A stretch of DNA of 64,000 bases, from the IMG/VR virus record IMGVR_UViG_3300028840_006907, positions 64,001 through 128,000 of that record. The stretch is one strand, 5' to 3'. Source of the DNA: a virus. Made by a program: the position numbers and the translations under genes. Below the pieces are notes generated by a model. That model was not told the DNA's origin, made no database searches, and saw only the letters and a list, made by a program, of their open reading frames with translations. Of the stretch, positions 2,341 to 63,985 are shown piece after piece. The stretch's first letter is position 1, and each line of letters starts with the position of its first letter.

Positions 2341-5300
2341 ATGTACTCTATTGATGATTTTATTCAAACTGTTTTTTCATATACTCTTCAGAAACAGAAA
2401 TTCTTCGCAGCAGCAGAACGTGCTTTAAAGAAAAATCTCCAATCCTATATACGCCCCGACTTTTTCGGAACTAGTTCGGGAGATGTCCGACTAGATAATT
2501 TACTTGTATCTCTCGCCAATAGATTGGGTGAAGCTGATGTTGAAGATAAAAGAATTTTTCTTGAAGATGCAGTAAGTGATTTTGTCTCAGAAGAGAAGGC
2601 TGACGAGTTAAGAGCAATCCTTGAAACCAAATTGGAAAGAAAACATAAAATCCCTGAAGAACTAGCTGATAAATTTATCAGTAAATCAGGTTTACTTGTT
2701 GATGAAGAGAAAAAAGAATTTGATCGTGTGAAGAAAGATATGGTCAAATTGATCTCAGGTTTTATTTACGGTTTCTTCGAAAATAAATTTAAAGAATTTG
2801 TACGAGCAAAAAAGAAAAAAGAAGATATCGGTAGAGAAGTAGCCCCGGATCTAGAAGTCCTGCCTGATAGTGAATTAATTGATCAAGCTGAAAAAGAACA
2901 AGAATGGCAAGAAGGTTTAACTAAAGATCTGTTTGGATATATCAATAAAAATGTTCCGGAAAAAAGGCGCTATGCTTATAAAATGATCTTGTTAAAAAGA
3001 TTTATGGTAGCACCAGCTAGTAGGATGGGTTTTGTTGAAATGGCAGAAAAGACAGGAATACCCAAATCATCTCTGGAAGAATGGGAAAAAGATTTGGGCC
3101 GTAGACTTGCTGAATATCTCTCTGCAGGTGGCCTTGGCCCTAAATTCGTTAGTGAGGGTGGCCTTTATAAAAAAGATGTTAAAGTTCCCGATTATAAAGA
3201 TGTTTTTAAAAACAAAGAGAATTCGAATGATTTCAAAGATTTCATGGAAGGCAAACAACCAAAAACCGGTAAACCCATGAGTGAGAAGGTAAAAAAAATA
3301 TTAGAGTTGTTTGCTGAAGGTAAAGATACCAAGGAAATCGAATCACAGACTGATGCGAGTATTGGTCAGATAAAAAAATTAAAAAGTACTCATTTCTCTC
3401 CCTGGTATAAAGAGTGGTATGCTGAAATGCTTAAGGATGTCAGAGAAGCTACAGAACGTATAAAGAAAGCTCTTATGATAATTAATGGTGAGACACCTCC
3501 TCCAGCTTCTCATGAGAAATATGTGAATATGGCAATAGCTAAAAAATACCCTCTTGAACTTACTGTAACTTTTAGTGCCAATTATGATAACCAGGATTTA
3601 ATAAAGGAAAGTGATCGAGTTGATCCGGAAAAAGACCCGGTTGATTTTAAATACAAACATTACCAGGTAAAATTAGAAAGGACCAGTAGACCCCGAATTG
3701 AATATACTTTTGATCAAAAATTAACCGATAAAGGTGATTTTGAAGGTAGCCCTCGATCATCATTGGTCATTGAAGGAAATCCTGGTCATGAAGGTTTGAG
3801 AAGAAGGCTCGATGAATATGTCGAGCAAGAAATGAAACCAGAGGGTATCCTTCCTTACGGTCCTTCGGTAAAGGGTAGAAAACCTGTCCAGATCCCTGTT
3901 GAATATGTAAATGAATCTCTTGATAGTACTAAGACCTATGATGGGTCTAAAAAAAGAAGATATCGTGGATTTATTGATTTCGCTGACAAGTACAAAGGTT
4001 TCATGGTAAAAGACCAACCTCATTTAACCCGGGTTCAGGAAGAAAGTAAAAGGGAAGAGAAGAAATTGTTACCTAAGGGTGGAAAAAATGAAATTCGAAA
4101 ATTGATCCAGCATTTAAAAGAAAATATTGGTGATGAAATGGAAGAGACTACACCCGATAAGAAAAAAGTTGAGGTGTGGAAAAAACAGATTAAAGAATTA
4201 CAGGATCATTTGAAGAAAGATTCTGAAAAAGAAATAGTGGATTTTGTCTCAAAACATAAAGAGAGGTTTAAATTCGCTGTCTCTGAAGAGCGCATGAAAA
4301 ATGTTCGTGAATTGATGAAACTCAGAGAACTAGTAGAAAACCAAGAACAACGATTGTTACAAAGAAAAATGAAAGGTGATCCTAAAGATAAGGATACAGT
4401 TAAACTTAAAGAAGATATAGCAACAAATAAAGATAAAATCACTAAGCTCGAAAAAATCCTTGAAGAAACAAAAGAGCCATTTCCTCCACCAGAATCGGCT
4501 AAAGTTCAAAAGTTATTAAAGGAACTTTCTGATCTCGGTATTAAAGACAGAAAATTAGAAGAATTCCTGACTTCAACTGATCTCCAATTTTTTGTTAACC
4601 AGGTACAAGGTGCTCTGGCCAAGGAAGCACAAGATAATATCGCAGGTGTTAAGAAAAACAAAAATATGAGTGATGAGGAAAAGAAACAGGAATATGAAGC
4701 TATTGAGAGAAAACGTGGTGTAAAGCTGAATAAATTTATCGAGTTGTTTGAAGCTGTACCTGAAGACATGAAAAAACGTCTGGAGAAATATAAAAAGGCT
4801 GATCCCAGTGGGTATAAAAAATTAGAAAAGAAGCATGGGGCTCTTTTAAACTGGGTAAATAATCCTGAAAAAGCCCTCTCTAAAGTAAAACAGAATCTTT
4901 CTACACCGAAAACTCTTGAGGCTCCAAAAGGTAAACAGGAATCAGTGGTACCTATGGAGGAAGAGGATGCTAAATACATGCTCAATTGGCTTGAGGCCCA
5001 GTTACAGGGTTTCGATGTTATAGGAGAAAGATTTGGTCAGGCAGCTTTAAAAGCAGAAGGTTTAAGTCCACAAGAGAGAGTTAAGGTAGAAAAACAATTA
5101 AAAGATACAGAAAAAGAGTTTCAGGATTTACGAAATAGAATAGGTGAAATGGAAGGTAAAGGGAAGGCTACCACTAGTGAAATCAAAGATCTGAAAAAAG
5201 ACATACCGACTTATATGAGAACAATAGAAGGTTTAAAAAGTTCTCTTTCTGATTCAAAAGAATCTCCTGCTATGATTATGGCACAAGTTTTAACTGATCG

Positions 5301-47789: not shown

Positions 47790-47872
47790 CATTCTTTAAG
47801 TGGTATACACAACTTAAAGAGCGGTCCTTCATGTTAACGTAGGTAATTTTCTCTGTAAGTTGTTGATTTATA

Positions 47873-48282
47873 TGGAGGTGAGGAGAGTTGAACTCCTGTC
47901 CGCGAAGGTATCTTGAGTAAACCTCTACATGTTTAGTCTATGGTTTAAATCTTATTCATAATCACGTTCACAGACAAACTTAATTAAGAACCAGTCTCTA
48001 GTCTCATTCATTGGTCAAGACTCCTCAATGAACCAGAACCCGTTTGGCTATCCGGAATTAACAGGGTTCAGTTAAAACCGGATTTGTCGTTTTTTGTTTA
48101 AACGACGGCTTCTTCTGCTTGATGAATAGCAGCAAGGTTAAGTGCTGAAAACATCGCACAGAAGTTAACTGTATTAGTTTTTTCAGTTATTATTGAAATC
48201 GGCTTTTTTACGAGGCCAACCGATTAACCTCGACATGCAGTTTACATTTCAACTCATCACGTCGAAAACCAAGTACACCCCC
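47873..48282 (-). ncRNA. ssrA: tmRNA
   Basis: 5' end GGGGGTGTACTTGGTTTTCGACG. 3' end AGGAGTTCAACTCTCCTCACCTCCA (T-arm plus acceptor). Acceptor GGGGGTG/CACCTCC has a G3-U70 pair (Ala identity). CCA is not encoded. Confidence 0.85.
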
Positions 48283-62767: not shown

Positions 62768-62845
62768 GGCCGAGTGGTGAAGTTGTTTTAACACGGTAGT
62801 CTGCAAAACTATTATGCGTCGGTTAGAATCCGACCTCGGCCTCCA
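62768..62845 (+). tRNA. tRNA-Cys(GCA)
   Basis: Acceptor GGCCGAG/CTCGGCC, anticodon loop CTGCAAA, T-loop TTAGAAT, CCA encoded. Confidence 0.85.
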
Positions 62846-62858
62846 GTTCTTTGAAATA

Positions 62859-63064
62859 AATAAGTATATCGAGTCCACGCGCAGATGTTAAGTCTGTGAG
62901 GAAGCTCAGGACATCACCGCTGACGGAAGGAGACGTAAGTCGTAGGTACTTCCTAGGATGCAACACAAACAGACCTATGCCGGTGAGCGGGGCTATGATG
63001 GTCGGGTTAGTGGCAAAGATAAATGTGGACATAAAACAGAATCCTGGCTACGGATATACTTATT
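62859..63064 (+). ncRNA. rnpB: minimal RNase P RNA-like gene
   Basis: GAGGAAGCTCAGGAC (62898-62912) parallels the bacterial CR-I GAGGAAAGUCCGGGC. ACAGAATCCTGGCTAC (63036-63051) parallels CR-V ACAGAACCCGGCUUA. The two strands form P4 (AGC-U-CAGGA with UCCUG-GCU) with a bulged U. P1 is 12 bp perfect (62859-62870 with 63053-63064). P2 pairs gtccac with gtggac. AGATAAATG parallels AGAUGAAUG. Confidence 0.7.
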
Positions 63065-63068
63065 ATAC

Positions 63069-63176
63069 GGAGAGGTAGGTTTAATTGGTAAAATCAGTGC
63101 TTTGCACAGCACCTAAGCTAGCAAGGTGCCATTCCAGGGATGGATTTCGGGGTTCAAGTCCCCGTCTCTCTGCCAA
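63069..63176 (+). tRNA. aberrant 108-nt tRNA-like gene (anticodon uncertain)
   Basis: Canonical acceptor GGAGAGG/TCTCTCT, D-arm, T-arm CGGGG-TTCAAGT-CCCCG and CCA. Between the D-arm and T-arm lie ~53 nt with competing hairpins. Confidence 0.5.
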
Positions 63177-63459: not shown

Positions 63460-63549
63460 GAGTAGGAGGTCAGATAGTGGTTGGCTGCACCGGACTGTAA
63501 ATCCGGATCTCGTAAAGGGACGCTGGGGGTTCGACGCCCTCCCTACTCA
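63460..63549 (+). tRNA. tRNA-Tyr(GTA), type II
   Basis: Acceptor GAGTAGG/CCTACTC, anticodon loop CTGTAAA, long variable arm. Confidence 0.85.
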
Positions 63550-63563
63550 TTTGTCAATTTTAT

Positions 63564-63649
63564 GGAGAGCAACCGAATGGTTAGGAGGCGGTTTCGAAAA
63601 CCGTTAAGGCTGAAAGGCTAACTAAGTTCGATTCTTAGGCTCTCCGCCA
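63564..63649 (+). tRNA. tRNA-Ser(CGA), type II
   Basis: Acceptor GGAGAGC/GCTCTCC, anticodon loop TTCGAAA, long variable arm, CCA encoded. Confidence 0.85.
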
Positions 63650-63985
63650 TTAACAAACAGATTTTAAAAAAGATGATGCTACTCTTTTAATTGCTTCTTT
63701 ATCGGCGTTTTCCATTTGATTAACAATTTTTTTGGCCCAGGTATATCCAGAATCACCTCCCCAAACAAGCCATGCTACATAACCTTTATCTTTCCATGGT
63801 TCATTTTTATATTCTGGGTTTATCTTTTTATTCTTTTGATGACGGTCGAAGAAAGCTTTCATTCTTTTGACTGTTTTGGGAGATAAAATATCTCTGTTTT
63901 TAAGATTAACAGCTCTTTGAACACCAGACCCAACACCTTCTGCTTTTGCCTGTTCAACTGTTAGTCCTCCTTTACCACCGGCCAT
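63650..63985 (-). CDS. hypothetical protein
   Basis: ORF track; Trp/Lys-rich. Confidence 0.55.
   Translation of the reverse strand: MAGGKGGLTVEQAKAEGVGSGVQRAVNLKNRDILSPKTVKRMKAFFDRHQKNKKINPEYKNEPWKDKGYVAWLVWGGDSGYTWAKKIVNQMENADKEAIKRVASSFLKSVC

Follow-up and report, generated by a model that had tools for sequence, protein, structure and literature searches.

The 64,000-nt stretch of DNA analysed here (referred to as the window) covers positions 64,001 to 128,000 of the IMG/VR virus record IMGVR_UViG_3300028840_006907 and is part of a 469,617-bp contig (NCBI JAEORW010000001.1). Within it, a 206-nt plus-strand gene encodes an RNA whose homology to RNase P RNA is strongly supported. A first-pass annotation had proposed such a minimal gene, embedded among tRNA genes and accompanied by a transfer-messenger RNA (tmRNA), between tRNA-Cys and a tRNA-like gene on the same strand. 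These surroundings could be recovered: ARAGORN reported 21 tRNAs plus the tmRNA in the window, Rfam or folding added one odd tRNA-like gene and two type-II tRNAs, and the immediate neighbours lie 13 nt and 4 nt from the gene.

62768–62845 (+): upstream tRNA-Cys (GCA), CCA encoded, 13 nt 5′ of P1
62859–63064 (+): 206-nt gene for the mini RNase P RNA, bounded by the two strands of P1
63069–63175 (+): atypical tRNA-like gene ending in GCCA, 4 nt 3′ of P1, recognised by Rfam (tRNA, 30.1 bits) and by its fold

Anatomy of the RNA and its match to RNase P models

The Escherichia coli rnpB sequence served as reference, and both RNAs were numbered and compared position by position. The catalytic domain of the mini RNA corresponds one-to-one with that of E. 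coli M1 in conserved region I (CR-I), P4, J5/15, L15, CR-IV and CR-V, and the following elements could be assigned.

62859–62870 / 63053–63064 (+): P1, AAUAAGUAUAUC with GAUAUACUUAUU, 12 bp, perfect
62873–62878 / 63025–63030 (+): P2, GUCCAC with GUGGAC, forming a pseudoknot with P4
62880–62898 (+): P3 hairpin, differing in length among family members
62898–62911 (+): CR-I, GAGGAAGCUCAGGA, being GAGGA followed by the P4 5′ strand AGC-U-CAGGA; E. coli G61–G74
62912–62915 / 62957–62960 (+): P5, CAUC with GAUG; E. coli 75–78 / 243–246
62917–62921 / 62986–62990 (+): P6 pseudoknot, CCGCU with AGCGG, the partner strand lying within the P17 loop
62922–62955 (+): remnant of the specificity domain (S-domain), 34 nt between P6 and the 3′ strand of P5
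62961–62963 (+): J5/15 CAA, C103 A104 A105; E. coli C247 A248 A249
62964–62966 / 63010–63012 (+): P15, within the 62964–63012 unit
62972–62975 / 63000–63003 (+): P16, within the same unit
62977–62981 / 62991–62996 (+): P17, within the same unit
63005–63007 (+): L15 GGU, G147 G148 U149; E. coli G292 G293 U294
63017–63025 (+): CR-IV, AGAUAAAUG, directly after P15; E. coli A328–G336
63031–63049 (+): J2/4 and CR-V, AUAAAACAGAA followed by the P4 3′ strand UCCUGGCU; E. coli A347–U360

The P1-P2-P3 arrangement is present, the C-G-C junction between P2 and P3 equals C18-G19-C20 of E. coli, and CR-IV (AGNNNAAUG) leads into the 3′ strand of P2 as in class A RNAs. In the 5′ strand of P4 (A45-G46-C47-(U48)-C49-A50-G51-G52-A53), the bulged U is U48 of the RNA (window position 62906), equivalent to U69 of E. 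coli; the 3′ strand, U184–U191, corresponds to C353–U360. The geometry of P4 is the same in both RNAs, namely 3 bp, the bulged U and 5 bp (66–74/353–360 in E. coli), and where its sequence differs from that of E. coli the opposite strand compensates. Immediately upstream of the P4 3′ strand lies ACAGAA (63036–63041; A347–A352 in E. coli), followed by UCCUGGCU at 63042–63049. In the 62964–63012 unit, AAACA equals A254–A258 of E. coli, and G146 G147 G148 U149 equals G291–U294.

Most of this anatomy had been recognised in the first-pass annotation. The perfect 12-bp P1 could be read directly from the sequence; P2 and P3 lie where it had put them, with pairings that covary in 73 homologues; CR-I, CR-V and P4 with its bulged U have the geometry of E. 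coli rnpB, including the compensated P4 changes; and the J18/2-like element is likewise in place. One assignment had to be revised, as the stretch it took to resemble the S-domain (GCAACACAAAC, 62960–62970) is really J5/15 plus P15, equivalent to G246–A258 of E. coli (GCAAGGCCAAAUA). Two further class A hallmarks had gone unlisted, namely the P6 pseudoknot and the L15 GGU. A P6 pseudoknot together with P16/P17 separates class A from class B, and the GGU loop of L15 pairs with the 3′-CCA of tRNA. The class A features present in the window RNA thus comprise P4 with a bulged U, P6 plus P16/P17, the J5/15 adenosines and the L15 GGU.

The S-domain (P7–P14) with CR-II and CR-III is absent from the window RNA, where the 34-nt hairpin stands in its place. 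This remnant consists of a stem (GGAAG/CUUCC), an asymmetric internal loop (GA // GUAGGUA) and an inner hairpin, GAC-GUAA-GUC at 62932–62941, which is the GUAA-tetraloop hairpin already noted in the first reading. P18 is also absent from the window RNA, as from most family members, and CR-IV adjoins P15 without a gap. With the S-domain cut and P18 gone, the RNA measures 206 nt against 377 nt in E. coli, in line with the roughly half-size, minimal form that had been proposed.

At gathering thresholds, the Rfam scan of the window returned only tRNAs and the tmRNA, and no RNase P model. In E-value mode with a search space of 501 nt, the archaeal RNase P model RF00373 matched 62862–63061 over its full length (model positions 1–288) with 46.8 bits and an E-value of 3.6e-12. 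The Rfam check suggested in the first-pass annotation therefore yielded an end-to-end match, at a score below the gathering cut-off of 84 bits. For two relatives, one in an Achromobacter genome (L230) and one in phage DLP_6 (both detailed below), the best Rfam model was the bacterial class A model RF00010, with 82.7 and 54.7 bits over model positions 1–367 (cut-off 100). In the RF00010 alignment of L230, the approximately 140 model positions of the S-domain are reduced to about 45 nt, and the 24-position P18 segment is deleted. The window RNA hence departs from class A membership in three respects: it scores below the Rfam threshold, lacks an S-domain with CR-II/CR-III and has no P18.

From the family we constructed a covariance model (R1; 206 positions), which gave a single match in the window, at 62854–63064 with 185.2 bits. 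The same model barely touched E. coli M1 (14 bits), indicating that the family is distinct from canonical rnpB. Moreover, the fold of the mini RNA had a z-score of –3.15 relative to shuffles, and its G+C content was 47%, versus 35% for the window.

Homologues, covariation and conserved bases

In total, some 190 homologues were found, mostly on IMG/VR viral contigs, many of which exceed 100 kb. A gapped core pattern, GAGGAANNUC-N(95-125)-AGANNAAUG-N10-ACAGAA, retrieved 76 loci from IMG/VR viral contigs (65 distinct sequences, with one false positive, L132); 27 of these contigs are longer than 100 kb and 9 longer than 200 kb. The same pattern matched 44 times in 596 Gb of GTDB genomes, with a complementary P4 in only about 17 cases, indicating that the family is strongly enriched in viral sequence. 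Two more scans, each omitting part of the core and searched with R1, contributed 106 further confirmed members. An exact 14-mer scan mostly produced chance matches in coding DNA that required filtering. With the window locus as BLAST query, 50,697 phage records yielded tRNA matches only, and BLAST with concatenated family queries matched only huge uncultured phages and the cultured Stenotrophomonas phage vB_SmaS-DLP_6, from which we conclude that BLAST is too insensitive for this RNA.

Apart from DLP_6, the GenBank phages with copies found by this concatenated-family BLAST, followed by R1, range from 595 to 735 kb. Among the largest published phage genomes, R1 scored LR756501 (735 kb) at 131 bits and LR745206 (635 kb) at 137 bits, and only BLAST identified the copies in LR756502 and LR756511. 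The DLP_6 copy (KU682439.2, 105767–106020; R1 109.7 bits) is unannotated and lies 5 nt 5′ of a tRNA-Arg gene, with a tmRNA nearby. P18-like hairpins are present in DLP_6, in the 735-kb phage and in L058 (7104–7420, plus strand, of IMGVR_UViG_3300031673_009100). The latter is the closest relative of the window locus and has the same tRNA order; its RNA has additional hairpins in J2/4 and where P18 would be, and about 37 inserted nt separate ACAGAA from the 3′ strand of P4; downstream of it, the place of the odd tRNA-like gene is taken by an HNH-endonuclease open reading frame (ORF).

The family extends beyond viruses, as a few copies occur in bacterial chromosomes. In the isolate genome of Achromobacter anxifer LMG 26857 (L230, 6078–6297), the copy sits within an array of 32 tRNA genes. 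Two contigs of Gemmataceae metagenome-assembled genomes (MAGs; L223, 4562–4782, and L211, 5907–6124) have copies amid genes for MalQ, aldose epimerase, DUF58 and glycosyltransferase. Small RNase P-like RNAs were furthermore seen in uncultured archaeal MAG contigs (L210, 3627–3852; L226, 494–692) and in a Bacteriovoracaceae MAG (L232, 2972–3275). These are about 200–300 nt long, have a different S-region and score 48–64 bits with the family model, L232 keeping P18; they could represent additional reduced forms, either cellular or carried by viruses of those cells. In addition, L124 has a partial second copy (3410–3509, minus strand; model positions 54–154, 48.5 bits) that adjoins its full copy at 3204–3407.

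Pairing was scored in a MAFFT alignment of 73 distinct members (alignment A3), covering 54 pairs including the P2 and P6 pseudoknots, with controls in which the 3′ partners were slid by 1–3 columns. Standard pairs occupied 90.2% of cells versus 34–43% in the slid controls, and the covariation score was 0.685 versus 0.10–0.14; none of 500 column shuffles reached the observed values. Changes on both sides were seen in 47 of the 54 pairs, in both pseudoknots among others. An earlier 61-sequence alignment and RNAalifold agreed with this outcome, and the individual helices behaved as follows.

P1: paired in 74.5% of cells despite poor alignment of the flanks; the inner 7 pairs all with double changes
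P2: 94.0%; compensatory changes in 5 of 6 pairs
P3: 87.8%; double changes in 4 of 5 pairs
P4: 99.1%; 6 pairs with double changes
P5: 100%; double changes in 4 of 4 pairs
P6: 85.4%; double changes in 5 of 5 pairs
P15: 96.8%; compensatory changes
P16: 89.7%; compensatory changes
P17: 88.2%; compensatory changes
Remnant stems: 87–95%; both stems covary

The fold is therefore conserved, and the P1, P2 and P4 pairings, whose conservation in relatives the first-pass annotation had named as a test, are kept with compensatory changes across the 73 homologues. These data bear directly on the possibility that the locus is a decaying fragment of a host rnpB captured along with tRNA genes, or a chance resemblance. 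Such a reading could draw on the scores under the Rfam thresholds, the disruptive-looking insertions of L058 and the partial duplicate of L124. It is contradicted by the covariation, which excludes a pseudogene or chance match, as about 190 homologues ranging from 31% to 60% GC have one reduced architecture in common and every helix shows compensatory changes, and by the single false positive among 65 unique viral matches of the core pattern. Conservation extends to the replacement of the S-domain, and this speaks for a single origin with purifying selection thereafter. We accordingly give decay or chance next to no probability.

Selection is also evident at nucleotides that contact the substrate or form the active site. 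Among positions not required for retrieval, the equivalents of A249 (A105) and G292 (G147) are invariant in the 73 sequences, and those of A248 (A104), G293 (G148) and U294 (U149) show conservation of 90% or more. Of the 31 members retrieved without a CR-I requirement, 28 have GAGGAA..UC. Those retrieved without a CR-IV/CR-V requirement keep the AG and AAU of CR-IV, and in members retrieved without the CR-V requirement the AC and last A of ACAGAA are nearly invariant. In the 635-kb phage LR745206 (L247, 2952–3178; 137 bits), GAGAAA replaces GAGGAA and GCAAAA replaces ACAGAA, with all helices kept.

The internal loop of the S-domain remnant, which was likewise not used for retrieval, contains three bases that are invariant in the 73 sequences, namely G74, A90 and C91 (window positions 62932, 62948 and 62949). 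A GNRA tetraloop contact by the remnant hairpin was considered and rejected, since its terminal loop is not conserved, and inspection by eye gave no support for interpreting the conserved internal loop as a T-loop or kink-turn.

The conserved internal loop with its three invariant bases suggests a new function of the replacement rather than simple loss. This might in turn indicate an RNase P-derived ribozyme with narrowed or altered substrates, which has lost T-loop recognition and serves particular phage substrates instead of acting as a general RNase P. Candidate substrates could be atypical tRNAs (e.g. the adjoining tRNA-like gene), tmRNA, closely packed tRNA arrays or mRNAs, and atypical tRNA-like genes and tmRNAs do occur nearby. 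The S-domain, now missing, measures the distance between T-loop and acceptor. In E. coli, M1 without residues 94–204 together with protein cleaves pre-4.5S RNA and not pre-tRNA-Tyr (PMC11143913). On the other hand, the family adjoins ordinary tRNAs of all isotypes, the canonical tRNA contacts (GGU and the A248 equivalent) are conserved, and published constructs of the catalytic domain (C-domain) do cleave pre-tRNAs (PMC11143913). We therefore regard such a specialised ribozyme as unlikely, though worth bearing in mind.

Candidate function, protein partner and comparable systems

Transfer RNA genes are the regular company of the family. Its loci contain 575 tRNA/tmRNA genes on the same strand versus 11 on the opposite strand; a same-strand tRNA lies within 100 nt in 38 of the 73 members, and a same-strand tRNA starts within 100 nt downstream in 31 of 73, often 0–8 nt after P1. 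In the window, CCA is encoded by 16 of the 21 tRNAs, as would fit the retained GGU loop. The idea that encoded tRNA CCA tracks the GGU motif throughout the family was rejected, as CCA encoding is bimodal and GGU constant.

Taking structure, conservation and context together, we think it probable that the locus encodes a trans-acting RNase P ribozyme cut down to its catalytic domain, belonging to a phage/tRNA-array lineage that derives from bacterial class A RNase P RNA. According to this model, the mini RNA would be co-transcribed with the surrounding tRNA genes, and the processing that liberates the tRNAs would also release it from the polycistronic precursor, with RNase P cleavage at the 5′ end of the tRNA-like gene, 4 nt away, setting the 3′ end of the ribozyme. 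It would then fold through P1–P5, the P2/P4 and P6 pseudoknots and P15–P17, bind the acceptor stems of pre-tRNAs through J5/15 (the A248 equivalent) and GGU–CCA pairing in L15, and cut the 5′ leader at the metal site of the P4 bulged U. Acting in trans, it could process phage pre-tRNAs and plausibly also pre-tmRNA. Because the mini RNA is devoid of the T-loop-binding S-domain and of P18, host RnpA would probably be needed for affinity and folding. The likely benefit would be extra or host-independent 5′-processing capacity for a burst of 20–30 phage tRNAs plus tmRNA, and the phage might thereby control the 5′ maturation of its own tRNAs.

The function of such an RNA is plausible, given that C-domains of RNase P RNA, of type A as well as of type B, cleave pre-tRNA without the S-domain, with or without protein (PMC11143913), that bacterial RnpA proteins can be swapped between species (PMC4919922), and that Pyrobaculum lives with an RNase P RNA missing nearly the entire S-domain (PMC4919922, PMC7191817).

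Several observations weigh against a trans-acting RNase P. Biochemically, E. coli M1 cleaves over 3000 times more slowly once P18 is deleted, and pre-tRNA binding by the isolated C-domain is weak (PMC11143913). At the level of sequence, the Rfam scores fall below the gathering thresholds (46.8 versus 84 bits for the window RNA), in the nearest relative, L058, J2/4 and the region next to the P4 3′ strand have insertions, and bases held to be universal vary: among 74 sequences retrieved without a CR-V requirement, 22 have ACAAAA and 7 have ACAGGA in place of ACAGAA, and CR-I has its GAGAAA variant in the 635-kb phage. With regard to context, about 20 of the 73 members have no tRNA in the fetched flank, and the bimodal CCA encoding alongside a constant GGU makes the CCA–GGU link weak. 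As for a protein partner, Pfam found no RnpA among 111 window ORFs plus 10 small basic ORFs (64 kb of the 470-kb contig), and tblastn of E. coli RnpA against the phage records yielded no phage-borne homologue, the matches looking like host contamination. Nor do the family loci share a conserved neighbouring protein, RnpA included; the best cluster consists of HNH endonucleases in 8 loci.

These negative RnpA searches, of window ORFs by Pfam and of phage records by tblastn, would also fit a non-catalytic mimic that titrates host RnpA or pre-tRNA 3′ ends, and so lowers or redirects host RNase P during infection. In the Thermotoga holoenzyme, RnpA is bound by P2/P3, CR-IV, CR-V and P15, and the mini RNA retains all of these regions. 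In addition, loss of the S-domain and of P18 cripples E. coli M1 in vitro (PMC11143913). A decoy, however, needs no bulged U, no P4 of 3 plus 5 bp, no A248/A249 in J5/15 and no GGU in L15, all of which are selected in very diverse sequences. Moreover, copies stand beside tRNAs in bacterial chromosomes, where sabotage of RNase P would be harmful. A decoy thus seems to us rather improbable.

A trans-acting catalytic-domain RNase P can be set against several known systems. Compared with bacterial class A RNase P RNA (RF00010, clan CL00002; E. coli M1), the catalytic domain is alike element by element, sharing P1–P5, the P2/P4 pseudoknot with its bulged U, P6, P15/P16/P17, GGU, CAA, CR-I, CR-IV and CR-V. 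Unlike the 377-nt E. coli M1, the 206-nt mini RNA has a 34-nt hairpin for P7–P14/CR-II/CR-III and no P18. Class A rnpB is the single housekeeping gene, whereas phages or tRNA arrays encode the mini RNA, which also scores below the Rfam cut-off. The type T (type P) RNA of Pyrobaculum/Thermoproteaceae, of about 200 nt, keeps the catalytic domain and nearly lacks the S-domain (PMC4919922, PMC7191817). The mini RNA resembles it in this size (about 200 nt), in consisting of the catalytic domain only and in the near absence of the S-domain. Type T RNA, however, is cellular, archaeal and works with archaeal proteins, whereas the mini family occurs in a bacterial phage context with tmRNA, possesses P6, P16/P17 and the L15 GGU, and has relatives whose best Rfam match is RF00010. 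The two reductions appear to be independent.

Engineered bacterial RNase P RNAs that are minimised or consist of the C-domain only have the same parts list as the mini RNA; they are laboratory deletions, whereas the mini RNA is natural, widespread and equipped with a conserved replacement module of its own. RNase P RNAs of bacteria of the candidate phyla radiation (CPR) score below Rfam thresholds and have lost helices such as P12, P13, P14 and P18 (PMC8172020). The mini RNA is similarly sub-threshold and short of helices, but the CPR RNAs are sole cellular copies that retain the S-domain, in many cases without GGU, and are not phage-borne. Theta (minimal hepatitis delta virus-like) ribozymes are phage-encoded within tRNA clusters as well, and have been proposed to free phages from host tRNA-processing enzymes (bioRxiv 10.1101/2023.06.13.544163). 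These ribozymes self-cleave in cis, act on the 3′ trailer and have an unrelated fold, whereas the mini RNA would be a trans-acting 5′-end enzyme.

The phage mini RNase P RNA family appears not to have been described before. A full-text literature search, subscription-only literature lying outside it, turned up no RNase P RNA described as encoded by a phage or virus; a large structured-RNA survey of IMG/VR does not mention RNase P, and in a 2024 RNase P review phages appear only as sources of tRNA substrates. Together with the unannotated DLP_6 copy, this agrees with the first-pass remark that such a gene is not a standard phage feature. We lean towards the wider view that the family is an unrecognised, horizontally mobile RNase P lineage that travels with the tRNA arrays of large and huge phages and sometimes resides in bacterial chromosomes. 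It would represent the first RNase P encoded by a virus and, among RNase P RNAs of bacterial type, the smallest; the catalytic domain plus a conserved replacement module would suffice in vivo, with host RnpA or without any protein.

RNase P counts as a housekeeping ribozyme universal to cells, and huge phages are known to carry parts of the translation apparatus such as tRNAs, tmRNA and ribosomal proteins. If this view is correct, a viral RNase P would add a catalytic RNA to those parts, and nature would have selected a bacterial RNase P made of the catalytic domain alone. The family would then offer a natural test case for the enzyme parts needed in vivo and for the contributions of the S-domain and P18. 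Structural studies could take the conserved replacement module as a defined object, and with a copy present in the cultured phage DLP_6 the question of function is open to direct test. As the family is missed by Rfam thresholds and unannotated in GenBank phages, a dedicated model would improve phage annotation.

Other features of the window and of family loci

Promoter and terminator scans of the sequences flanking the mini RNase P gene were uninformative in this DNA of 35% GC. The downstream tRNA-like gene (63069–63175; 104–107 nt; Rfam tRNA 30.1 bits), missed by ARAGORN, has normal acceptor, D and T arms. Its anticodon region can be drawn in two ways, either as a 5-bp stem with a 6-nt loop and a 35-nt extra arm, or as one long extended stem. 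ARAGORN likewise missed the two type-II tRNAs.

63462–63547 (+): type-II tRNA, anticodon GUA, Tyr-like, CCA not encoded
63564–63650 (+): type-II tRNA, anticodon CGA, Ser, CCA encoded

In other family loci, tmRNAs accompany the mini RNase P gene in L126, L152, L183 and phage DLP_6. An ORF resembling the Tpt1/KptA RNA 2′-phosphotransferase, as judged by eye, lies within 3 kb of the RNA in L137, L139, L167, L171 and L181.

The protein-coding content of the window resembles that of huge phages, with numerous PHROG families of unassigned function as well as HNH endonucleases, NUDIX and radical-SAM enzymes. Among the window ORFs of this phage-like 470-kb contig, Pfam also revealed a type I-E Cascade set (Cse1, 4.6e-48; Cas7/CT1975, 1.1e-52; Cas5, 1e-26; Cas6e, 5.9e-32), which belongs to a CRISPR-Cas system. 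Finally, for the phage-borne tmRNA (47870–48282, minus strand; Rfam 159.9 bits), the predicted tag peptide, EKTNTVNFCAMFSALNLAAIHQAEEAVV, is unusually long.

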